A stretch of 64,000 bases of DNA from Candidatus Levybacteria bacterium RIFCSPLOWO2_01_FULL_38_21 (GTDB lineage: Bacteria > Patescibacteriota > Microgenomatia > Levybacterales > UBA12049): positions 42,578 to 106,577 of the forward strand of contig MFOT01000024.1 in assembly GCA_001782475.1 (NCBI GenBank), read 5' to 3'. The notes under the pieces were generated by a model that was not told where the DNA came from, did no database searches, and saw nothing but the letters and a program-made list of their open reading frames with translations. Below, piece by piece: positions 11,386-64,000 of the stretch. Position 1 is the stretch's first letter; each line of letters begins with the position of its first letter. A program made the translations under genes and the position numbers.

Positions 11386-12408
11386 ATTAAGATAAGTGAT
11401 TTCTTCCTCTAGTTCCAGCTTGTATTTTTCTTTTATAATCTCTTTTATTTCTCCAATTAAACTTCTTACATCTTCCGATGTCGCGTTGCCAAGATTGACA
11501 ATAAAATTAGGATGCTTTTCGGAGACCATTGCGCCTCCTTGTCTTTTCCCTTTTAAACCTGCTACTGCTAAAAGTTTAGCTGTTGGCAAAATAGGAAAAG
11601 GATCATCTTTTATCGAACTACTTAGTCCTCCTAATAATTTTTGGGGAACTTTTTCGATTGGGATGTTTTTGAAAATACTTCCTATATTTGGGTATTCTAG
11701 AGGATGTCTTTCTTTCCGATAATTGATCTTTTTCTCGATCTGTCTTTTAATTAAATCTTTATTGCCCCCTTGAAGTTTTAATTCCACTGAGATTATAATT
11801 TCACTTTTCCCCTCCCCGTCTTTAAAAATACTTGATCTATACCCAAAATTGCACTCTGAGTTTTTTCTTTTTCTAACCTCGTAGGTTGCGAGATTACCAA
11901 CCTCGTAGGTTGAGAGACTTTCGACTTCGTAAGCACTATCTTTTATTTCCCCTTTAAATGCTCCAGCATTCCCCCTGACAGCGCCGCCGATTGTGCCAGG
12001 AAGACCTCCTGCCCACTCAAGTCCGGATAGACAATTTTGAACACAAAAATTGAGCAAATCCTCCAATAAAACACCGGCGCCGGCTAAAATCTTAATATTG
12101 CCAGCCTCGCCAACCTCGCAGGTTTCGTGCGTGCAACCTGCGAGGTTACAATAACCCAATATCCTGATCTCTTTTATTTTATTGTGAATAACAAGTCCAT
12201 TAAATCCTTTATCGCTTACTAAGACATTCGTCCCCCCACCGAAGATAAACATATCCTGCGAAGGTGATTTTTTTGAGATTTTTTTCCATTGTTTAAGGCC
12301 TTCGATTAACTCCTCAACGCTTGAAACCTTAAGAAGATACTTGGCTCTGCCCCCGATTTTGAAATTGTTGAGGTCTTTTAAAGAGATATCTTTTTGAATC
12401 GAAACCAT
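11383..12408 (-). CDS. murB: UDP-N-acetylenolpyruvoylglucosamine reductase
   Basis: FAD-binding N-terminus (GGRAKYLL...FGGGTNVLV) and MurB C-terminal domain; contains in-frame palindromic insertions (YEVESLSTYEVGNLATYEV; CTHETCEVGEAG). Confidence 0.75.
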   Translation of the reverse strand: MVSIQKDISLKDLNNFKIGGRAKYLLKVSSVEELIEGLKQWKKISKKSPSQDMFIFGGGTNVLVSDKGFNGLVIHNKIKEIRILGYCNLAGCTHETCEVGEAGNIKILAGAGVLLEDLLNFCVQNCLSGLEWAGGLPGTIGGAVRGNAGAFKGEIKDSAYEVESLSTYEVGNLATYEVRKRKNSECNFGYRSSIFKDGEGKSEIIISVELKLQGGNKDLIKRQIEKKINYRKERHPLEYPNIGSIFKNIPIEKVPQKLLGGLSSSIKDDPFPILPTAKLLAVAGLKGKRQGGAMVSEKHPNFIVNLGNATSEDVRSLIGEIKEIIKEKYKLELEEEITYLN

Positions 12409-15905: not shown

Positions 15906-16424
15906 TTAAAATGGGATATCGTCCGGAGCAATTTCTTCGTTAGGAGCTTCTTCTGGTACTTCCTGGGATCCAGGCTCTTTTTTGCCCTTTGGCCCCGCCT
16001 TTGGCGGGGTTGATTTTCCTTTCAATTTTTTACCGCTTGTTTCTTCGGCTACTTCCTCTGGTTTTTCCTCCATTTTCTCTTCCTCGGGTCTTCTTGAGTC
16101 AAGTAAAATCATATCGGATATTATTATCTCTGTTGTTGATCTTTGTGTTCCGTCCTGAGCGTTCCAGGATCTTGTAGAAAGTCTCCCCTCGAGATAGACC
16201 TTTCGCCCTTTAACCAGAAACTGGCTGCAGATTTCGGCCAATTTATTCCATGCGACTACTCTGTGAAAATCAGCCTCGTCTCTTTTTTCTCCTGTTTCGG
16301 TAGTCCATCTTCTGTTTGTAGCAACACTAAAAGAGCAGACAGCAGTTCCGTTTGGAGTGTACCTAAGCTCCGGATCCCTCGTTAAATTTCCAATAATTTG
16401 TGCTCTGTTCAAACTCCTAGCCAT
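15906..16424 (-). CDS. ssb: single-stranded DNA-binding protein
   Basis: OB-fold N-terminus (MARSLNRAQIIGNLTRDPELRYTPNG) and acidic C-terminal tail ending DDIPF. Confidence 0.85.
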   Translation of the reverse strand: MARSLNRAQIIGNLTRDPELRYTPNGTAVCSFSVATNRRWTTETGEKRDEADFHRVVAWNKLAEICSQFLVKGRKVYLEGRLSTRSWNAQDGTQRSTTEIIISDMILLDSRRPEEEKMEEKPEEVAEETSGKKLKGKSTPPKAGPKGKKEPGSQEVPEEAPNEEIAPDDIPF

Positions 16425-17443: not shown

Positions 17444-18379
17444 CTATCCGATTTTAAATTCAATCACGTCTCCGTCTTTTACTATATAATCCCTTCCTTC
17501 AAGCCTTATTTTCCCTTCCTCTTTTGCATTTTTCCACCCGCCAACAGATAATAAATCCCCAACTAAAATTACTTCTGCTTTAATAAAGTGTTTGGCAAAA
17601 TCTGTGTGGACTAAATTCGCCGCATCGATAATGTTTGCGCCGTTTTTAATTGGCCATGCTTGAGTCTGTTTCCCGCCAACAATCGTAAAGAAAGTTATTA
17701 AATTTAATAATTTGTAAGATTCTACAATAACTTGATCTAATCCTGAACTTGCTTGCCCTGAGTTTGTCGAATGGGCCGAAGGATCAACACCTAGCTCCCT
17801 AAGATAGCCCTCCTGTTCTGATTCTGAAAGATCTGAAAGTTCTGCTTCTAGTTTTGCGCAGATTTTAATGAATGAAAACGGAAGGCTGAAATCCTGCCTG
17901 CCGGCAGGCATGGCTTTTTTTAAATCTTTTTCGGAAACATTTAATACATAAATCGTTGGCTTTTTTATGCTTGCTAATTCAAGTTCTTGATTAACAGTTT
18001 CAACATCGATTATTGGGTCAATTTTCTGATAAGGATGCAAAACACTCGGGTTTTCAAAGACCCTTACAATATGTAAAATCGCATCTGCTTCTCTTATATG
18101 AGCTAAGAACTGATTTCCTAAACCTTCGCCGGCATGCGCCCCTTTGATCAGACCTGCTATATCTATAAATTTTATTGAAGCAGGTACTTTTTTATTAATA
18201 TTTGCGACTGCGGCAATTTTATCAAGTCTTTCGTCAGGCACCTCAACTACACCCACATTTGGTTCAATTGTCGTATACGGATATTCACCAACTTGTGCGA
18301 TCTGTCTTTTTAAAAGCGCATTAAAAAGTGTGGACTTCCCACTATTTGGCAGGCCAACGATCCCGATTGATAAGGACAT
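17444..18379 (-). CDS. ychF: ribosome-binding ATPase YchF (Obg-like)
   Basis: GIVGLPNSGKSTLFNAL ... YPYTTIEPNVGVV ... FIDIAGLIKGAHAGEGLGNQFLAHIREADAILHIVR; TGS-like C-terminus. Confidence 0.85.
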   Translation of the reverse strand: MSLSIGIVGLPNSGKSTLFNALLKRQIAQVGEYPYTTIEPNVGVVEVPDERLDKIAAVANINKKVPASIKFIDIAGLIKGAHAGEGLGNQFLAHIREADAILHIVRVFENPSVLHPYQKIDPIIDVETVNQELELASIKKPTIYVLNVSEKDLKKAMPAGRQDFSLPFSFIKICAKLEAELSDLSESEQEGYLRELGVDPSAHSTNSGQASSGLDQVIVESYKLLNLITFFTIVGGKQTQAWPIKNGANIIDAANLVHTDFAKHFIKAEVILVGDLLSVGGWKNAKEEGKIRLEGRDYIVKDGDVIEFKIG

Positions 18380-34807: not shown

Positions 34808-35438
34808 AAACTTGTCTTCCCTCCATAGCCCTTTGAAGTGTTATTTCATCTGCATATTCAATATCTGCTCCAACCGGAAGTCCTCTTCCAATCCTAGTAA
34901 TTGTTAATTGTTGATTGTTAATTGTTGATTGTTCGCGAAATTTTTTCGCGATATACATCGCAGTTGCCTCCCCCTCCATTGTAGGATTTGTTGCTAAAAT
35001 TATCTCTTTAATTCCTTCTTTCTTAAATCCATTTGATGATTCCTTGACTCTTTCCAAGAGTTCTTTTACGTAAATCTCATCCGGCCCGATATTGTTTAAC
35101 GGATCAATTCTTCCATGAAGAACATGATAGACCCCGTTGTATTTTCCGCTTTTTTCAAAAGACAAAACATCCAAAGGGCTTTCAACAACACAAATTGTTG
35201 AGCTGTCTCTTTTTTCATCAGAACAGATATGGCACGGATCGCTTTCCGCAACCAAAAAACAGATTGAACACAAAACTGTATCTCTTTTTAGATTTTGGAC
35301 TGATAAAGAAAACTTGTCCAATTCACCTTGAGGTACATGCAAGAGATAAAAAGTTAAACGCTGGGCAGTCTTAGGACCAATCCCTGGTAATCTCTCGAAA
35401 GATTCAACCAGATTTTGTATTGCTTTTGGAATTTTCAT
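34800..35438 (-). CDS. recR: recombination protein RecR
   Basis: HhH motif (LPGIGPKTAQRL), C4 zinc finger (CSICFLVAESDPCHICSD) and Toprim domain; carries an in-frame heptad-repeat insert TINNQQLTITR. Confidence 0.85.
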   Translation of the reverse strand: MKIPKAIQNLVESFERLPGIGPKTAQRLTFYLLHVPQGELDKFSLSVQNLKRDTVLCSICFLVAESDPCHICSDEKRDSSTICVVESPLDVLSFEKSGKYNGVYHVLHGRIDPLNNIGPDEIYVKELLERVKESSNGFKKEGIKEIILATNPTMEGEATAMYIAKKFREQSTINNQQLTITRIGRGLPVGADIEYADEITLQRAMEGRQVYE

Positions 35439-37595: not shown

Positions 37596-39065
37596 CTAAG
37601 ATTTTAACATAACCGAAACCGGAATTCTTTTTCCGCCGATCTGAAATAGAGCCTTTTCTATTATTTCCTTTGATTTTTTTTCATCCAGTTTTTCTTTGTG
37701 AAATTTAAATCTTGCTTCAATAACGAACTTTTTTTCATTATAACTTTTAAGACTGCAGCCTCTAAGAACTCCGGCAATAGAATGGTTTTGCGATTTAACT
37801 TTATTGATCAGCTCATGCCATAGAGTATTGTTACTTTGCCCATCTGAAGGAGAACTGAACGCCGACTTAGATTTATTTTCGAAATTCTTTTTTTCTGATT
37901 GTCGGCGTTCACTTAGCGAGCGGGGATTTTGTCGAGATTGTAATAAATCATTGCGAGCGTCTCCTGCAGTATGCGGCAAAGTAACAGAAGACTGATCCTG
38001 CGTAGACCACTCTATAATCGCAATCTCCAAAGGCAGCTGGGGTAAAACAGAATATTTAAGTTTTGAATAAGCATTTGTCAATAAATCCATAAGCATTCTG
38101 ATATCCTCAATACTTAGAATATCCATACCTGATTGCTCCCCTGAAACACCAACTTTTACAAGCAGAAGCTCGTGAAGTTTAAGCATAAGCTTCTCTAGGA
38201 AATACTTCATATCAACGCCTGTTGTTGTAATTTTGTCAACAAGAAGCATTGCTTTTTTTACATTTTTTTCGGAAAGAAACTTAATCATTTCCCCTATTTT
38301 ATAATCTAAATTTACCGCCTGATGCATCTTTTCAACCGTCTCTTTTGTAATTTTTTTATTTCCAACCTCCGAATAAATTTCCTCTAAAATTTTTACTCCG
38401 TCTCTAAAACTGCCATCTGAAAATTCCGAAATCTTAAAGAGCGCCTCTTTGTCTACGGAAATCTTTTCTTTTTTGGCAATCCGCAAAAACGCGCGAACAA
38501 GTTCGTTCGCTGTTGCCTTTTTAAAGGCCATATGAAAACAGCGCGACGCAATGGTTTGGGGAACTTTATGAGGCTCAGTCGTGCAAAGTATAAAAATAAC
38601 ATGATTTGGAGGCTCCTCTAGGGTTTTTAACAAGGCGTTAAAGGCCTCTGTTGTAAGCATATGAACTTCATCTATTATGTAAACTTTTTTTAGTGCCTGG
38701 AAAGGAGACAATCTAATCTTTTCCCGAAGGTCTCTTATTTCATCTATTCCCCTGTTTGAAGCTCCGTCTATTTCCAAAACATCTATATTTGTTCCGTTTG
38801 TTATGGAGACACACTGATCGCATTTATTGCATGGCTCAACTGATAACTTACGGCTTTTAGCTGTCTGCTTTTGGTTAAGTTTTTCGCAATTGACCACTTT
38901 TGCAACTATTCGCGCAGCAGAGGTTTTACCAAGACCCTTGGGGCCTGTAAAAAGGAGAGCGTGAAAAGAAGAAGGTCTTGACAAAATATTAGTCAGTTTA
39001 TCTCTGACAACTTCACTATCCAGTTCTTCTATTGTTTGGGGTCTGTACTTGCGGTAAAAAACCAT
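37596..39065 (-). CDS. dnaX: DNA polymerase III subunit gamma/tau
   Basis: YRPQTIEEL ... LFTGPKGLGKTSAARIVAK (Walker A) ... zinc module CNKCDQC. Confidence 0.85.
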   Translation of the reverse strand: MVFYRKYRPQTIEELDSEVVRDKLTNILSRPSSFHALLFTGPKGLGKTSAARIVAKVVNCEKLNQKQTAKSRKLSVEPCNKCDQCVSITNGTNIDVLEIDGASNRGIDEIRDLREKIRLSPFQALKKVYIIDEVHMLTTEAFNALLKTLEEPPNHVIFILCTTEPHKVPQTIASRCFHMAFKKATANELVRAFLRIAKKEKISVDKEALFKISEFSDGSFRDGVKILEEIYSEVGNKKITKETVEKMHQAVNLDYKIGEMIKFLSEKNVKKAMLLVDKITTTGVDMKYFLEKLMLKLHELLLVKVGVSGEQSGMDILSIEDIRMLMDLLTNAYSKLKYSVLPQLPLEIAIIEWSTQDQSSVTLPHTAGDARNDLLQSRQNPRSLSERRQSEKKNFENKSKSAFSSPSDGQSNNTLWHELINKVKSQNHSIAGVLRGCSLKSYNEKKFVIEARFKFHKEKLDEKKSKEIIEKALFQIGGKRIPVSVMLKS

Positions 39066-39146
39066 AAGCTAAGATTTATGATTTATGAATTATGATTTAT
39101 GAATTTTAAAATGGTCAATGGTAAATGATAAATTGTCAATCGTTTG

Positions 39147-39533
39147 CTATTCATGGTTTATTCCAAGTAAGTGCATTATTCCGTGTTCTACAAGTTCTCC
39201 GATCTTTTCATCCACCAGAACTTCTTCAGCCGCTGCCTCTCTTATTACCTCAGGGTAGGATATAACAACATCACCCAAGAAAAGGACGTCGGAGGAAGTC
39301 CCAACTCTCTCTCCCTCGGCCTGGGAAAACGAAAGCACATTTCTTGTTTTATCTTCGCCTTTATATTTTTTACTAAGGGAGCGCATTTTTCTATCTCCGA
39401 CAATTGCAATAGAAACTTCAACTTTTCCTACAACTCCCTTTTTTTTTAATAAATTATTAACCAAGGATCTAATACGTTTTCTATTTATTTTATATCTGCT
39501 TTCTACAAAAATTGGGACTAAAACTTCTTCCAT
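39147..39533 (-). CDS. ybeY: rRNA maturation endoribonuclease YbeY
   Basis: HGIMHLLGINHE (HxxxHxxxxxH zinc motif). Confidence 0.8.
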   Translation of the reverse strand: MEEVLVPIFVESRYKINRKRIRSLVNNLLKKKGVVGKVEVSIAIVGDRKMRSLSKKYKGEDKTRNVLSFSQAEGERVGTSSDVLFLGDVVISYPEVIREAAAEEVLVDEKIGELVEHGIMHLLGINHE

Positions 39534-39534
39534 A

Positions 39535-39717
39535 TTAAATCCAGGTTTTCTTTATTCGTCTTGCTTCCTCTTGCTTTTGCTTGCGAGCCAAGGACGGTTT
39601 AAGATAAAATTCTCTTCTTTTTGCCTCTTGGATTATTCCTCCGGCAATTACTTTCCTTGAAAATTTTCGAATCAAAGACTCATCACTTTCTCCCGGCATT
39701 TTTTTAACAAATACCAT
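39535..39717 (-). CDS. rpsU: 30S ribosomal protein S21
   Basis: MVFVKKMPGESDESLIRKFSRKV...KRREFYLKPSLARKQKQEEARR. Confidence 0.8.
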   Translation of the reverse strand: MVFVKKMPGESDESLIRKFSRKVIAGGIIQEAKRREFYLKPSLARKQKQEEARRIKKTWI

Positions 39718-39779
39718 AAAAACACCCCCTTTTACCCGCCAAAGCCTTGGCGAAGGCGGGCTTACATTCTTTACCTATT

Positions 39780-40127
39780 TTACTCTATTGAAACCTTTTT
39801 TCCAAGAGGACCGATCAGGTGAAAATGGAGATGATTTATAATCTGCGCACCGCCCCCATTTACAATAATTTTGTATCCTCTGTCTTCCAGTTTTTGATTT
39901 TTGATTAATTTTTGGATAACAGTTTTTAATTTACCAAAAAGCAGATTGTCTTCGAGATCCAAAAAATCTACGATGTGTTTCTTGGGCATAATAAGAAGGT
40001 GGACAGGCGCGATCGGATTAATGTCCGGAAAAACCATCATTTCTTGATCTTTGTATATAAATTCTTTTAGAATTTCTTTCTTTGCGATTTTGCAAAAAAT
40101 ACAATCCATAAGCCAGTTACTAGCCAC
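39780..40127 (-). CDS. HIT-family (histidine triad) hydrolase
   Basis: CIFCKI... and HLHFHLIG histidine triad. Confidence 0.8.
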   Translation of the reverse strand: MASNWLMDCIFCKIAKKEILKEFIYKDQEMMVFPDINPIAPVHLLIMPKKHIVDFLDLEDNLLFGKLKTVIQKLIKNQKLEDRGYKIIVNGGGAQIINHLHFHLIGPLGKKVSIE

Positions 40128-40141
40128 TAGTTGCTAGTTGC

Positions 40142-41089
40142 TTAAATCTTTTCCAATACTTTAATTATTTCTGTCAAAGATAGCTTCGTTGGCTTCATTT
40201 TTGGATTTTTGACAGAGCCGTTTAAAAGCATTTTCCGACCGATATGAAGAAACCAAGTTGCTTGAGGGTCCATTTTTTTTAATCTTTCATAAACTAACGT
40301 CAAATCTATATTCTTGTTGATTGTTGATTGTTGATTGTTGATTGTTGATAAAGGCTTTGCCTTTATCCTAACATACCCTTTTCGCGGGTCTTTGCGAACA
40401 ACAATTACATATCCCATTTTTTGAGACAATTTTATAACGGTGTCATTAATCGTTTCAAAACCTATTCCACGGCCGTACCGCGTTTTAAATTTTTTTCCTT
40501 TTTCTTTAATCTCCCGCTCTGCCCAAATTCTGTTTTCAAATTCGTGCAAAACCGCATCAAGGCATTGCATTACGAAACCTACATAATATTCATCCTGATC
40601 GGGCCTTTGAACCTTAAGTCCATCTAAAATGCCTACTAGAGAAAATTCATGGTAATCCGCCGTTGGGTCTTTCCAAAAAACTTCTTTAAAATGATCAACA
40701 TCCACAACTACCTTAACCATTCTTCCTACAGCTTCCATCCGGTCTTTTACTCCTTCTGAACTCTGAATTCTGAACTCTGAATTCTGAACTCGTTTGACGA
40801 AGTCAAACGTAAGGCTTGCCGCACACACATTTGTATCGGCTACTTGATGATGATCCAAAGGACCAAGGCCCGTATCTACATGAATAACCTCATCATCTCC
40901 TATTTTCTCTATCGCATTGCGCGGGGAGCCCCGCCCGGGCGGGGCGACCTCAGCGCTTTTTCCAATTCGTTCTCCGGCTGGAACGAATCGGACGACCGCA
41001 TCTTCCCATCCCGGTAAAAATCTTTTTATAAGCCAAACAGAAGTTATCGCATCCAAATCCGGCGAACTATGCCCAATTATAATTTTCAT
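40142..41089 (-). CDS. DHH-family phosphoesterase (NrnA-like)
   Basis: MKIIIGHSSPDLDAITS and HVDTGLGPLDHH motifs; contains three in-frame repeat insertions (heptad STINNQQSTINK, ctgaact repeats, GC-rich palindrome). Confidence 0.65.
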   Translation of the reverse strand: MKIIIGHSSPDLDAITSVWLIKRFLPGWEDAVVRFVPAGERIGKSAEVAPPGRGSPRNAIEKIGDDEVIHVDTGLGPLDHHQVADTNVCAASLTFDFVKRVQNSEFRIQSSEGVKDRMEAVGRMVKVVVDVDHFKEVFWKDPTADYHEFSLVGILDGLKVQRPDQDEYYVGFVMQCLDAVLHEFENRIWAEREIKEKGKKFKTRYGRGIGFETINDTVIKLSQKMGYVIVVRKDPRKGYVRIKAKPLSTINNQQSTINKNIDLTLVYERLKKMDPQATWFLHIGRKMLLNGSVKNPKMKPTKLSLTEIIKVLEKI

Positions 41090-41194
41090 AAATTAAACTC
41101 AATAGTAAATGGTCGATTGTAAATTGTCAATTGTTAATTGTCGATGGCGGGGTTGACAAAAATAAAAAAATGAACCAATATATAATTACAGAGT

Positions 41195-41452
41195 ATGAAT
41201 CCTAAAACTGCGGATTTAGATCCAAAACTTAAAGAGACCTATGAGCGGGTAATGGGGACAGTAACTCCTACAGCATCAAATATGCCTCAAGCATCAACTG
41301 ATACTCCAAAACCTCAAACTCAAGTGGTTACGGCTAAGAACAGGGGAAGACTTTCTCCCATTCTTCTTGCGATTGTAATTGTTTTGTTTTTTATAATCTA
41401 TACTTTTGTCTGGACAATAGTTTTTAAACTAAAACTCCCCTTCTTACCCTAA
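41195..41452 (+). CDS. hypothetical small membrane protein
   Basis: C-terminal TM helix ILLAIVIVLFFIIYTFVWTIVF. Confidence 0.3.
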   Translation: MNPKTADLDPKLKETYERVMGTVTPTASNMPQASTDTPKPQTQVVTAKNRGRLSPILLAIVIVLFFIIYTFVWTIVFKLKLPFLP

Positions 41453-42742
41453 TCGTTTAATCGCTTGATCCACAGAAATAATCTCTGTCTTATCTTCATC
41501 TCTTTTTTTCCATTCCACTTGTCCTCCAGAGACTTTATCTGAGATTACAAGCCGAACGGGAATTCCGATTAAATCCGCATCCGCAAATTTCTCTCCAGCA
41601 CTCACATCTTCTCTATCATCATAAAGAACCTCAACTCCTGTTTTCACAAGCTTATCGTACACCTCGGAGGTGGCCGACTCGCCCGGCGAAGCCTTGGCGA
41701 AGCGAGGATGGACTCCTCCGAGGTGGATTAAATGGACCTGATAGGGCGCAACAGATTTTGGCCAAACAATCCCTTTTTTATCGTTGTGAACTTCAGCAAT
41801 TGCTCCCATTGTTCTTGATATTCCTATCCCATAACAACCCATAACAACATATTTTTCTTTTCCGCTTTTATCTTTAAAAGTAAGTCCGAATGCTTTGGAA
41901 AATTTGTCTTTAAGAGGAAAAATATTTCCTACCTCGATTGTCTTTACTTTTTTCAAAGGTCCATGGCCAAGATCACATTCCTTGCCTTCCTTAACTTTGG
42001 TGATTTCTGAATTTTGCGAAAAATCTCCGCTGGGACAATAAATAATCTCATCTTCTCCGTTCCCACAGATAACCTGAAACTCATGGGAAAATTTGGAAAA
42101 TGTCCCGCCTGAAGCAAGTGTTTCTATAGCATTAAGCCCCAATCTTGAAAAAGTTTTTTTATAGACCTTTTTCATCAGCTCATAATAATCCACTAGATCT
42201 TTTTCGCTTTGGTGGAATGAATAAAGATCTTTCATAAGAAATTCTCTTCCTCTTAAAAGTCCTGCCTTCGATCTTGCCTCATCCCGAAATTTATTCTGAA
42301 TTTGATAAAGTTTTAACGGAAGATCTCTGTATGAATTCGCAAAGTTTTTTACCAGAGGCACTAAGACCTCTTCATGAGTAGGACCTAAGGCATACTCAAA
42401 ATCATATCTGCTTTTAACTTTAAAAAGCGCGTCAAAAGAATCCCACCTTCCGGTTTTTTCCCAATTTGCTTTATTTTGAAAGGAAACTAATAGAAGTTCC
42501 TGCGCTCCTGTATTATCCATCTCATCCCGTATAATATTTGAGATTTTATTTAATACCCTAAGTCCTAAAGGCAGAAAATTATAAACTCCGGCAACTTCTT
42601 TTCTTATAAATCCTGCCTGAATTAACAATCGTGCATTTACCGAAGATTCATCTTTGGGGGATTCTTTTATTGTTTTACCAAAAAGCTTTGAATATAGCAT
42701 AGAATATCCTGAGTTTACCGAAGGATAAAACGAGTATAGCAT
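41444..42742 (-). CDS. proS: proline--tRNA ligase
   Basis: Class II aaRS motifs (GPTHEEVLVPL..., FRDE, GCYGIGISR); contains an in-frame GC-rich repeat insertion (GGVHPRFAKASPGESATSEV). Confidence 0.85.
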   Translation of the reverse strand: MLYSFYPSVNSGYSMLYSKLFGKTIKESPKDESSVNARLLIQAGFIRKEVAGVYNFLPLGLRVLNKISNIIRDEMDNTGAQELLLVSFQNKANWEKTGRWDSFDALFKVKSRYDFEYALGPTHEEVLVPLVKNFANSYRDLPLKLYQIQNKFRDEARSKAGLLRGREFLMKDLYSFHQSEKDLVDYYELMKKVYKKTFSRLGLNAIETLASGGTFSKFSHEFQVICGNGEDEIIYCPSGDFSQNSEITKVKEGKECDLGHGPLKKVKTIEVGNIFPLKDKFSKAFGLTFKDKSGKEKYVVMGCYGIGISRTMGAIAEVHNDKKGIVWPKSVAPYQVHLIHLGGVHPRFAKASPGESATSEVYDKLVKTGVEVLYDDREDVSAGEKFADADLIGIPVRLVISDKVSGGQVEWKKRDEDKTEIISVDQAIKRLG

Positions 42743-46161: not shown

Positions 46162-47298
46162 TTATGGTTTTGGAAGAATTGGCTGGCCAGAGATAAAACG
46201 AATAATATCGCTTAGGGTAATAGCTGCGATTAAGGCAAGAAGAATTGCCATTCCAATTGCGTGCGCATAACTTTCAAATTTTGTAGAAACTTTTCTGCCT
46301 GTTACGGCTTCTATTAGAATAAAAAAAAGTCTTCCCCCATCAAGCGCCGGAATCGGCAAGATATTCAAAATCGCAAGATTCAAAGACAGGAGCGATACAA
46401 AAGATAAAACCGCCAAAGGACCTATTGCTACAAACTGTCCGGTTAATTGAGCAATTCCAACAGGTCCTGCAACTCCTTTTGGCGCTTGTGCATGGACAAG
46501 TAACTGATAAACAATTCCTGCAAGACCCGACAAAATAAGCCAAGAGTATTTAAGAGCTTCTAAGAGCCCTACAAACGGTGCTTGATATAGTGAATATTTT
46601 TTAGTAATAACATTGGAAGTTATTCCTACTCCCATTGGTCCTTGATCGGATGGATAATTTTTTCGCGGAATTACCTCTACATTTCTTTCTTTTTTAGATT
46701 TGTCTAAAACTCTGAGAGCTAATTTCTGCCCTAAATGCTGTTTTGTGACTGATACTAATTGAGAAGGGCTTGTAATTTTTTCACTATTGATAGTAACAAT
46801 CTGATCTCCTGTTTTAAGTCCCGCTTTTTGAGCAGGAGAATCCTTTACTATCTCTGTTATAAAAACCTTATCGCCGGGAGTCTGGACGCCTGATATTCCA
46901 TAAAAATAAGTGAGTATAAAAACTGCTAAAAGAAAATTCATTACAACCCCAGCTATTACAACCAATGCTCTTTGCCAAACAGGTCTTGAGAAGAATGCTC
47001 TTTGAGCATCTTCAACTTTCAACTTTCCACTTTCAACTTTCAACTTTCCGCCGCCAGCGCTGTCTTCTCCGTAAAGTTTTACAAATCCTCCGATAGGCAA
47101 AAAGTTTATTGAATATATTGTTTCTCCTCTTTTTATTCCGAACGCTCGGGGCGGAAGACCAAATCCAAATTCCTCAACTCTTATCCCTAACTTTTTCGCC
47201 ACAAAAAAATGCCCCGCCTCATGTATTAGAACGAGAACCGTCAATATTATCAAAAAAACTAAAATTGTTATTAGCATAAAATTTAAGTCAAAAGGCAA
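46162..47298 (-). CDS. rseP: RIP metalloprotease RseP (site-2 protease, M50)
   Basis: LIHEAGHFFVAKK (HExxH), PDZ domain, LDGG motif; contains an in-frame caacttt heptad repeat encoding GGGKLKVESGKLKVED. Confidence 0.8.
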   Translation of the reverse strand: MPFDLNFMLITILVFLIILTVLVLIHEAGHFFVAKKLGIRVEEFGFGLPPRAFGIKRGETIYSINFLPIGGFVKLYGEDSAGGGKLKVESGKLKVEDAQRAFFSRPVWQRALVVIAGVVMNFLLAVFILTYFYGISGVQTPGDKVFITEIVKDSPAQKAGLKTGDQIVTINSEKITSPSQLVSVTKQHLGQKLALRVLDKSKKERNVEVIPRKNYPSDQGPMGVGITSNVITKKYSLYQAPFVGLLEALKYSWLILSGLAGIVYQLLVHAQAPKGVAGPVGIAQLTGQFVAIGPLAVLSFVSLLSLNLAILNILPIPALDGGRLFFILIEAVTGRKVSTKFESYAHAIGMAILLALIAAITLSDIIRFISGQPILPKP

Positions 47299-53985: not shown

Positions 53986-54954
53986 TCAGAAGCCTCCGAC
54001 AACTGTGACTTCTCCTTTGATTGGAGGGTGGGAATCATATCCTTCCAAAGTGAAATCTTCAAATTTTATATCGTCTATGTCTTTTAATTTTGGATTGATT
54101 TTCATTTTGGGAAACGGCCGTGGTTTTCTTTTAATTTGCTCTTTGACCTGATCAAAATGATTGCTGTAGATATGCGCATCTCCAAAGGTGTGAACGAAAT
54201 CCCCGGGAGGATAACCCGTCAGATGGGCAAAAATCATCGTAAAAAGCGCATAGCTTGCTATATTAAACGGAACGCCCAAAAAAAGATCAGCGCTTCTTTG
54301 ATATAGCTGGCAGGAAAGCCGGCCATTTATTACATTAAACTGGAAAAGCGTATGGCAGGGCGGAAGAGCAACCGATTGTCCCGGCTTTGCCATTTCATAT
54401 ACAAACTCCGGATTCCAGGCAGAAATTACAATATGCCGCCTCTCCGGTGTTTTTTTTATCTTTTGAATCGCCCATTTTACCTGATCGATTTTCCGCCCAT
54501 CTGATGCCGGCCATCTTCTCCACTGGACTCCATAAACAGGCCCCAATTCTCCATATTTTTTAACAAACGGATGATCGGATGATGAGCTTTTTATTTTTAC
54601 AACATACTCTTCCTGCGTCAATATTTTTGAGTTTTGAGTTTTGAGTTTTGAGTTTTGGGCTACTTTGTAGCCCTTGTATCCCCATTCATCCCAAATATGA
54701 ACATCGTTATCAACTAGATATTTTATATTTGAATCGCCTCTTAAAAACCAGATCAACTCATGCAAAATTCCCCTAAGAAAAACTTTTTTCGTAGTCAAAA
54801 GAGGAAAACCGGTTGATAAATCAAAGCGAATTTGCCTTCCAAAAACACTCCTAAACGTTATTCCGGAATTAAACTCATGCTTCTCAAACCCATTTTCCAT
54901 GACATCTGTAAGTAAATCTAGATATTGATATTCCGGATGAAGATTTTTTTTCAT
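53986..54954 (-). CDS. thyA: thymidylate synthase
   Basis: [25 protein letters not shown] (catalytic Cys); in-frame ttttgag heptad-repeat insertion ([11 protein letters not shown]). Confidence 0.9.
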
Positions 54955-63283: not shown

Positions 63284-64000
63284 ATTTCGATAACTTGGGT
63301 TGTTTCGAGTTCCCACTAGACAAGCGGTTTTCCCGCATCTAGCGAGCCCCTGTTCATCTGTGATTTTAACTGTCGAATCTTCTTATATCCTTCATTACTT
63401 TTATGTTCTCCATTCTTTACCATTAAAGCGATTCGCCGAAAGAGTAAATAATTTTTAAGCTTTTTGCTATGAAGCTGGTTCTTATCAAAAAAAGGTATTA
63501 TTTTTTCATGTAAATCTTTTTGAGCAGTTACGCCAAATCTGTAACAATTTTTTTGATTTGCACGATATTCCTTTTGATAATATACTCCACCGCAATCAAA
63601 AAACTTCTGAACTTTCTTGAGTAATGGAAGTTCGTCTTCCCGAAGTTTTATGAAAAAGTGCATTTCTACTCGAGATTTATGAGTTCTGTTTGGAACTCTA
63701 GTCGCTACATAAAAACACCCTTCTCCATCAGTTAATCCTACGATATAATCATCAGATAAACGATTAGGTTTTTCCCTTCCCCCGCTAAGCGGGGTACTAT
63801 GGATCTGCTGACTTCTCTTCTTCAAGTTCATCTACCTTGAGAATAGATAAACAATTACCCAATTGTCAAGAAGAGATCTCCTAAGGTCACTTACCAAACA
63901 ATTCCTGGCATCCTAATTAGACTTTTTATATGTTCTTCCCTTAGACACACCTGATTAAGGTCGAACGTCTATTTTTTATTAGGCTGTCATTTGCTTCAGG
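63284..64000 (-). mobile_element. 16S rRNA intron (probably group I) inserted near E. coli position ~1400, continuing beyond the window
   Basis: The expected TGTGTACA following CCGCCCGTCA is replaced by more than 700 nt of non-rRNA sequence that contains a LAGLIDADG ORF. Confidence 0.6.
63316..63831 (-). CDS. LAGLIDADG homing endonuclease encoded within the 16S intron
   Basis: DYIVGLTDGEGCFYV is a single LAGLIDADG motif in a 171-aa protein (homodimer type). Confidence 0.75.
   Translation of the reverse strand: MNLKKRSQQIHSTPLSGGREKPNRLSDDYIVGLTDGEGCFYVATRVPNRTHKSRVEMHFFIKLREDELPLLKKVQKFFDCGGVYYQKEYRANQKNCYRFGVTAQKDLHEKIIPFFDKNQLHSKKLKNYLLFRRIALMVKNGEHKSNEGYKKIRQLKSQMNRGSLDAGKPLV

Follow-up and report, generated by a model that had tools for sequence, protein, structure and literature searches.

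Short GC-rich palindromic elements in housekeeping genes and spacers of Candidatus Levybacteria

How do GC-rich, palindromic patches come to lie within and between the housekeeping genes of an AT-rich, gene-dense genome? We examined three such patches in a 64,000-nucleotide (nt) stretch of Candidatus Levybacteria bacterium RIFCSPLOWO2_01_FULL_38_21 (contig MFOT01000024.1, positions 42,578 to 106,577; hereafter the window). One lies in proS, the gene for prolyl-tRNA synthetase, one in a gene for a DHH-family protein, and one in the spacer between a HIT-family gene and rpsU; all three had been quoted in an earlier note on this DNA and are present where it placed them. We conclude that they are probably ultra-small palindromic repeat elements that colonise permissive sites of this genome. 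They fall into two families: family 1 is the 30-nt element of proS and of the HIT-rpsU spacer, and family 2 is the 38-39-nt element of the DHH gene. Their positions, and those of an older palindrome around the proS copy, are given below.

41678-41707, + strand: 30-nt hairpin element of family 1 in proS, reading CTCGCCCGGCGAAGCCTTGGCGAAGCGAGG (head CTCG and a 26-nt hairpin)
41660-41677, - strand: 36-nt coding palindrome (HLGGVH/SATSEV), right-hand half in gene orientation, with arm CACCTCGGAGG at 41660-41670
41708-41725, - strand: the same 36-nt palindrome, left-hand half in gene orientation, with arm CCTCCGAGGTG at 41715-41725
39731-39760, + strand: second copy of family 1, in the HIT-rpsU spacer, reading ttta and then CCCGCCAAAGCCTTGGCGAAGGCGGG
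40919-40957, - strand: 38-39-nt palindromic element of family 2 in the DHH-like gene

The proS unit is an insertion, as had been suspected. On the coding (-) strand it reads CCT CGC TTC GCC AAG GCT TCG CCG GGC GAG, which gives the peptide PRFAKASPGE, and the in-frame proS segment translates as GGVHPRFAKASPGESATSEV. Among 120 aligned ProS homologues this peptide is confined to the window's own protein and is absent from the other 119. Where the window has HLGGVH/PRFAKASPGE/SATSEVY, its closest relatives have HLGGVH-LST-SEAY, or HLGGVHSATPEV / HLGGVHSATPEVY. The empty site is preserved in two related loci (L018 and L166), in which GTCCAT is followed directly by TCGGCCACC, whereas in the window 26 nt and then CGAG stand between the two. 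Relative to L018 the window has therefore gained exactly 30 nt, or 10 codons, between GTCCAT and TCGGCC, with no target duplication. Related inserts occupy the same proS apex in L019 and L192, a few bases off and in the opposite orientation. In the AlphaFold model of ProS, residues 330-341, between strand 322-326 and helix 343-353, have a predicted local distance difference test score (pLDDT) below 50, and the inserts generally fall in low-confidence loops of otherwise confident models.

The sequences flanking the proS unit had been taken for direct repeats produced by target-site duplication, an interpretation that must be abandoned. They form a perfect 11-nt inverted repeat, CACCTCGGAGG (41660-41670) and CCTCCGAGGTG (41715-41725), and look direct only because CCTCNGAGG is nearly self-complementary. 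The whole of 41660-41725 folds as a single long hairpin (-24.8 kcal/mol, z = -5.6). The arms are also found in relatives that lack the 30-nt insert, as CACCTCGGAGG...CCTCCGAGG in L016, CACCTCGGGGG...CCCCCGAGGTG in L018 and CACCTCGAAGG...CCTTCGAGGTG in L164, and they show compensatory changes (GGAGG/CCTCC, GGGGG/CCCCC, GAAGG/CCTTC) that cost amino-acid replacements. Across eight sequences of the 36-nt palindrome 96.4% of cells pair, and 4 pairs have changed on both sides. Because the arms existed before the insert and covary, they represent an older palindrome rather than a target duplication: a 36-nt coding palindrome was there first, and the 30-mer split it at its apex. The same palindrome with a nested family-1 insert occurs outside proS as well (L191, 7051-7129), and a 34-nt relative of it lies at 12113-12146 of the window. 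The latter consists of a perfect 13-nt inverted repeat, AACCTCGCAGGTT/AACCTGCGAGGTT, within an open reading frame of 341 residues (peptide NLAGCTHETCEV), and shares its 34-nt architecture with the outer proS palindrome.

A family-1 copy is built of a 4-nt head, a 6-bp stem and the loop GAAGCCTTGGCGAA, the loop consensus being GAAGC(C/T)TT(G/A)GCGAA. CTTG is the most common head, and CTCG, CCTG and TTTA also occur. That the proS unit and the spacer unit belong to one family, as had been suggested, is borne out by the 14-mer AAGCCTTGGCGAAG, which has exactly two sites in the window, 39742-39755 and 41689-41702; with at most one mismatch 0.03 matches are expected, and none of 100 shuffles reaches 2. 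(A looser 15-mer search that allowed 3 mismatches had no power and was uninformative.) The spacer copy has one mismatch to the family-1 consensus, and the proS element is identical to a copy in L214 at 24/30 positions.

Many further copies are present in 948 kb of related DNA, made up of 80 syntenic Levybacteria loci, earlier loci and the window, which samples one syntenic region per genome. The outcome that the earlier note named as refuting its reading, a lack of other copies and the same peptide in unrelated ProS proteins, is not borne out. A scan of contigs with a ProS query had yielded 12 loci, one of them close. A regular-expression search of the 948 kb returned 22 sites, against 0-1 in 20 shuffles. 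Hamming scans returned 33 copies of the 26-30-nt form, as well as shorter related units (21 and 30 nt). The 38-mer was found 4 times, and a third palindrome, GCCTGCCGGCAGGCAGG, had 21 hits spread over 8 loci (palindromic sites being counted on both strands). No shuffle had more than one hit for any of the searched families, and the 26-30-nt form and the third palindrome had none. This third palindrome is present in the window at 17893-17909, within an open reading frame of 311 residues, where it encodes PAGRQ. A wider scan gave 37 family-1 sites with 29 distinct sequences. Clustering of GC-rich islands by single linkage on 9-mers was discarded, as everything collapsed into one cluster.

At least seven sites are available in both empty and filled form, among them sites in HIT, RecR, proS, a 6PGL-like gene, DHH and dnaX-ybaB. 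In these pairs the filled site has gained exactly 30 nt, namely the 26-nt hairpin and a 4-nt tail (CAAG, CGAG or CAGG on the sense strand), and has lost no target bases. No target duplication accompanies the gain. Stems of family 1 covary: 93.5% of cells pair, 4 pairs have changed on both sides, and none of 500 shuffles matches this.

Most family-1 copies lie within open reading frames of known proteins, where they occupy two reading frames and both coding strands. The hosts include ProS (in three different loops), HIT, RecR, DnaX, DHH, G6PD-like and 6PGL-like proteins and a putative secreted protein, as well as intergenic spacers and junctions; several copies stand directly upstream of a ribosome-binding site. 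Orientation is strongly biased: 36 of 37 sites share a strand, even though at least two frames of the opposite strand are open as well. Depending on frame and strand, one and the same DNA yields the peptide PxFAKASxGx, SPLRQGFxGQA or, from the opposite coding strand, PTEASAKAG. This use of several frames and both coding strands indicates that the conserved unit is the DNA and not the peptide, and it rules out a peptide-level function of family 1. All units have lengths divisible by three (21, 30, 36, 39), and all but a few of their frames lack stop codons, so that copies in surface loops would be translated and tolerated.

GC content is 39% in the window, the + strand has a negative GC skew, and the genes lie mostly on the - strand. 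The genes around the elements are the following.

41444-42742, - strand: proS, host gene (Pfam tRNA-synt_2b and HGTP_anticodon; an identical protein is on a Levybacteria contig)
40142-41089, - strand: gene for the DHH-family protein, host gene
39780-40127, - strand: HIT-family gene, upstream of the spacer copy
39535-39717, - strand: rpsU, ribosomal protein S21, downstream of the spacer copy (Ribosomal_S21 in syntenic loci)
39147-39533, - strand: ybeY

The HIT-rpsU spacer offers a second instance of gain, this time outside a gene. It is 62 nt long in the window versus 31-32 nt in L020 and L022, where it reads TAAAATAGGTAAAGA[T]TAAAAGGGGGTG, and the extra sequence of the window is the hairpin. 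In five other loci (L195, L196, L197, L207 and L176) a 30-nt element lies within the coding sequence of the HIT gene itself.

The palindrome in the DHH gene is likewise an insertion, as proposed, since the segment is lineage-specific and L022 has an empty site. It does not belong with the GAAGCCTTGGCGAA element: comparison places it in a separate 38-39-nt family. Its coding strand reads AGC GCT GAG GTC GCC CCG CCC GGG CGG GGC TCC CCG CGC, translated as SAEVAPPGRGSPR, and its core is the perfect 18-nt palindrome GCCCCGCCCGGGCGGGGC (40928-40945), which is unique in the window and found in 0 of 100 shuffles. The 38-mer, GCGCTGAGGTCGCCCCGCC(A/C)GGGCGGGGCTCCCCGCGC, recurs in L156 (prs-like gene) and L150 (dnaX-like gene), differing at no more than one position and encoding (S/G)AEVAPPGRGSPR in both, but not in prs or dnaX of the window itself. 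In the DHH loop of L144/L020 the same hairpin carries a different 4-nt loop, and in that of L021 the core is replaced by a larger palindrome. This loop, between FVPAGER and IEKIGDDEVIHVDTGL, is hypervariable among 120 homologues of 263-406 residues. It is one of three hypervariable loops in the gene, the other two being encoded by heptamer repeats at 40754-40791 and 40314-40349. In the AlphaFold model of the DHH protein, pLDDT is low at residues 41-60, and the three variable segments are in low-confidence coil. Family 2 had no match in viral contigs.

The family-1 loop reaches beyond Levybacteria. The 16-mer CGAAGCCTTGGCGAAG has 115 sites in viral contigs, of which 53 carry at least 5 of 6 complementary stem pairs, with many different stems; the same holds for 34 of the 67 viral sites of a TTTA-loop variant. 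Among 99 distinct viral sites, taken without selection, 73% of the 6-bp stem cells pair, and 125 cells have changed on both sides versus 62 in shuffles, a figure that 0 of 500 shuffles match. The contigs that carry the loop span 27-72% GC, and over this range the 14-nt loop is invariant and the stems covary. This implies a conserved, as yet unnamed partner acting in trans. One carrier contig, judged by its terminase, is a Planctomycetes/Phycisphaerae-type phage or prophage. Reading-frame context is unreliable in the high-GC viral contigs because spurious long open reading frames are common there, and a 14-mer query was rejected as it was swamped by chance matches. In a viral contig of 60% GC (L268, 2995-3028) a copy of the hairpin adjoins the palindrome CTTGTCCGCCG/CGGCGGACAAG, which looks like the head and stem joined to their own reverse complement with the loop omitted.

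PLSDB plasmids contain no exact copy and give only weak matches of 83-92% identity, and L274 matched nothing among plasmids and phages. No Rfam family matches the elements at the gathering score: a scan of the window reported only a tRNA and a group II intron fragment, and permissive scans of two copies returned noise. In the literature, searched for the topic, the sequence string and the encoded peptide, we found no description for candidate-phylum bacteria. We take seriously the possibility that the GAAGCYTTRGCGAA hairpin represents a widespread class that has so far escaped description. A more specific proposal, which we advance tentatively and rate somewhat below even, is that the loop GAAGC(C/T)TT(G/A)GCGAA with its freely covarying 6-bp stem defines a cosmopolitan, undescribed class of ~30-nt elements adapted to genes and spread by a widespread enzyme reading the single-stranded hairpin, from candidate-phylum bacteria to Planctomycetes-type phages, or else that such an enzyme recognises the hairpin as a conserved site with a function in the host.

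Several observations weigh against the view that these are elements colonising permissive sites. The 30-mers have modest predicted hairpin energies (-2.5 to -7.4 kcal/mol), no more favourable than those of shuffles. No target motif is conserved beside the family-1 copies, and the 64-kb window holds only two of them. No mobilising enzyme was found: a tblastn search of the 948 kb with an approximate IS200 TnpA query, a weak test because it covered one syntenic region per genome, gave only matches with E of 2 or worse. Orthologous family-1 copies are conserved at 22-30 of 30 positions versus 57-88% for their 60-nt coding flanks. Judged from these alignments, such conservation would be unlike that of plain junk DNA and points to recurrent insertion, gene conversion or function.

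Function is the core of the alternative that survives best, although we consider it unlikely: the hairpin would be a strand-specific cis-acting signal, kept by selection and scattered wherever a compact genome can bear it. In one variant it would be an RNA or single-stranded DNA recognition site for a widespread host or phage factor concerned with chromosome handling, DNA uptake, or mRNA processing or stability. The better conservation of copies than of the coding DNA around them fits this alternative, as do the invariance of the 14-nt loop over contigs of 27-72% GC with covarying stems, the near-total strand bias (36/37) and the copies placed directly upstream of ribosome-binding sites. However, positions vary between related genomes, the same gene being filled in one and empty in another; copies sit in arbitrary loops of unrelated proteins; no Rfam family matches; and the density is only about one copy per 20-25 kb. 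Known DNA uptake sequences are far denser than this.

A second alternative, which we regard as very improbable, holds that nothing moved between sites and that each unit arose locally, by template switching (quasi-palindrome correction) and slippage in loops that tolerate insertion. The loops in question are indeed hypervariable among the 120 homologues and carry heptanucleotide tandem arrays, a signature of slippage, and insertions nest at hairpin apices. Moreover, relatives carry the centre of the 36-nt proS palindrome in either orientation, as HLGGVHSATSEV and HLGGGRMDSSEV: in the ProS homologues P0006, P0008 and P0026 the loop HLGGGRMDSSEV is the exact translation of the reverse complement of the palindrome (HLGGVHSATSEV), which, read from the proteins alone, places both orientations at one site. 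Yet identical or nearly identical units of 21, 30 and 38 nt, shared mismatches included, recur at many non-homologous sites in many genomes, and the same loop is found in other phyla. Such local events could account for the orientation flip and for the heptamer arrays; they do not account for the families.

Finally, the spacer copy (39731-39760), a GC-rich hairpin that separates HIT from rpsU and lies directly upstream of the rpsU ribosome-binding site, might simply be an intrinsic terminator of HIT or a leader hairpin of rpsU whose likeness to the proS unit is incidental. This is scarcely credible. In an intrinsic terminator a T-run comes at once after the GC-rich hairpin, whereas here no T-run follows on the coding strand, which continues with TAAAAGGGGGTG; a scan for terminators made no call at this position; L020 and L022 lack the hairpin in the corresponding spacer; and the same 26-30-nt unit occurs at the dnaX-ybaB junction and within coding sequences elsewhere.

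On the reading that we favour, a family-1 30-mer inserted into the apex of a 36-nt palindrome that already occupied the proS loop. Insertion is exact, neither duplicating target bases nor removing any, and the translated products would be short Pro/Ala/Gly/Arg/Ser-rich peptides in surface loops. The elements presumably spread in trans, through an enzyme that recognises the single-stranded hairpin and its loop, and they may persist as selfish or nearly neutral DNA. The leading candidate is an enzyme of the HUH/tyrosine type, as for repetitive extragenic palindromes (REPs) and IS200/IS605, which would fit the strand bias, the hairpin with its conserved loop and the absence of a duplicated target.

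In behaviour the elements match three known systems, Rickettsia palindromic elements (RPEs), intragenic REPs and yeast mitochondrial GC clusters, yet the defining features of each fail. RPEs are palindromic repeats lying in frame in many unrelated housekeeping genes, translated and thought to be compatible with protein folding (PMC10969869, citing Ogata 2000 and 2002). The likeness to RPEs is in-frame insertion into unrelated genes, here ProS, HIT, RecR, DnaX, Prs, DHH and others. However, RPEs measure about 100-150 bp, have a conserved peptide and occur in Rickettsia only, whereas the units described here are 21-39 nt long and read in several frames. Ours also belong to a candidate-phylum bacterium, have no sequence in common with RPEs, and include one family that extends across phyla.

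REPs are imperfect GC-rich palindromes of 20-40 nt that come in families, have a conserved tetranucleotide at one end and are sometimes intragenic (Di Nocera et al. 2013, PMC3733652). REP-associated tyrosine transposases (RAYTs) are believed to move them without target duplication (PMC3733652). Repeated imperfect palindromes of this size are what we find, in units of 21, 30 and 38 nt with paired stems. However, REPs end in GTAG or CGTC (PMC3733652), whereas family 1 has CTTG, CCTG, CTCG or TTTA and family 2 has neither tag; REPs are mostly extragenic, whereas the present copies are mostly intragenic; and the conserved part is here the loop, rather than the stem as in REPs. REPs go with a RAYT, and none was found here by the approximate IS200 TnpA query of the 948 kb, one region per genome.

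The GC clusters of yeast mitochondria are short GC-rich palindromes of an AT-rich genome, found in frame in var1 (PMC8811140). Their loops diverge fast, they merge and nest, they are regarded as mobile (PMC8811140), and in some yeasts they are translationally bypassed. AG/TAG terminal repeats are taken as their target duplication (PMC8811140), whereas our empty and filled pairs have no terminal direct repeats; and the clusters are organellar while the present elements are bacterial. Nematomorpha mitochondria have inverted repeats within protein-coding genes, with both arms translated (PMC6649704); unlike the elements here, these palindromes are long (up to 284 bp), perfect and not in dispersed families.

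Single-strand transposition of the IS200/IS605 type depends on hairpins, proceeds without target duplication and is strand-biased, and it needs a TnpA gene and a fixed target tetranucleotide. Hairpin, lack of duplication and strand bias are alike here, but TnpA and a fixed target tetranucleotide were not seen. Miniature inverted-repeat transposable elements have terminal inverted repeats and a target-site duplication, of which there is none at the at least seven sites compared. PARCELs were considered and set aside, being a tandem protein domain of 25 residues.

Other repeats share this genome. Heptanucleotide tandem repeats are strikingly common in the window, where a period of 7 or 14 accounts for 32 of the 72 rows from Tandem Repeats Finder; sites of this type include 40314-40349, 40754-40791, 41099-41145, 34898-34933, 39073-39105, 47011-47048 and 54625-54657. 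The 948 kb hold 163 arrays of period 7 and 144 of period 14, and at most 10 of any other period from 4 to 15. Many are in frame and encode loop peptides with a periodicity of 7 residues, such as NGKWQMANGK and NSEFRIQNSE. An excess of heptamer repeats in bacteria is known and has been ascribed to polymerase slippage (PMC4692102).

By a flank-based test, 7 of 38 distinct copies of the hairpin elements lie within or against heptamer arrays, as compared with 0.8% of random positions; a strict test, which asks for an array within 25 nt of the element, retains only 2 of 38. The association may reflect a shared permissive site or a mechanistic link. Heptamer-linked copies are at 534-554 in L150, 10142-10162 and 16628-16648 in L151, 2429-2458 in L176, 593-622 in L179, 15823-15843 in L185 and 17444-17473 in L218. 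Both DHH and RecR of L151 carry the composite (AAATCTC)n, 21-mer, (AAATCTC)n. The DHH loops of L173 and L179 have a small hairpin, ATCCGTCAG..GACGGAT, set into two different heptamer arrays. Each locus has TCA on either side of the hairpin, possibly a 3-nt duplication.

A repeat with arms of the CGAAAATTTTCG type occurs in L021/L148, L218 and L158, and in L021/L148 it fills the DHH loop and the HIT-rpsU spacer, two sites that hold other elements in the window. The window also has a coding hairpin in the DnaX linker (37853-37914), with a 14-nt inverted repeat and a 34-nt spacer, and another, CCCCGCCAAAGGCGGGG, at 15993-16009 within an open reading frame of 172 residues. The Rfam match to group II intron D1-D4 (38.2 bits) is at 63773-63851 and overlaps an open reading frame at 63316-63831 that has a LAGLIDADG-like motif (LTDGEGCF).

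The genomes of candidate-phylum bacteria are tiny and nearly all coding, which leaves little room for selfish DNA, and the elements cope with this by being readable as protein. Surface loops of essential enzymes, ProS, RecR, DnaX and Prs among them, become longer and more diverse in this way. For work on these lineages the elements are a possible source of error in alignment, phylogeny and structure prediction, and they also provide strain-level markers. Naming the partner that reads the loop could add a new mobilisation system or a nucleic-acid recognition module, and its identity would make the movement of the smallest mobile elements directly testable.

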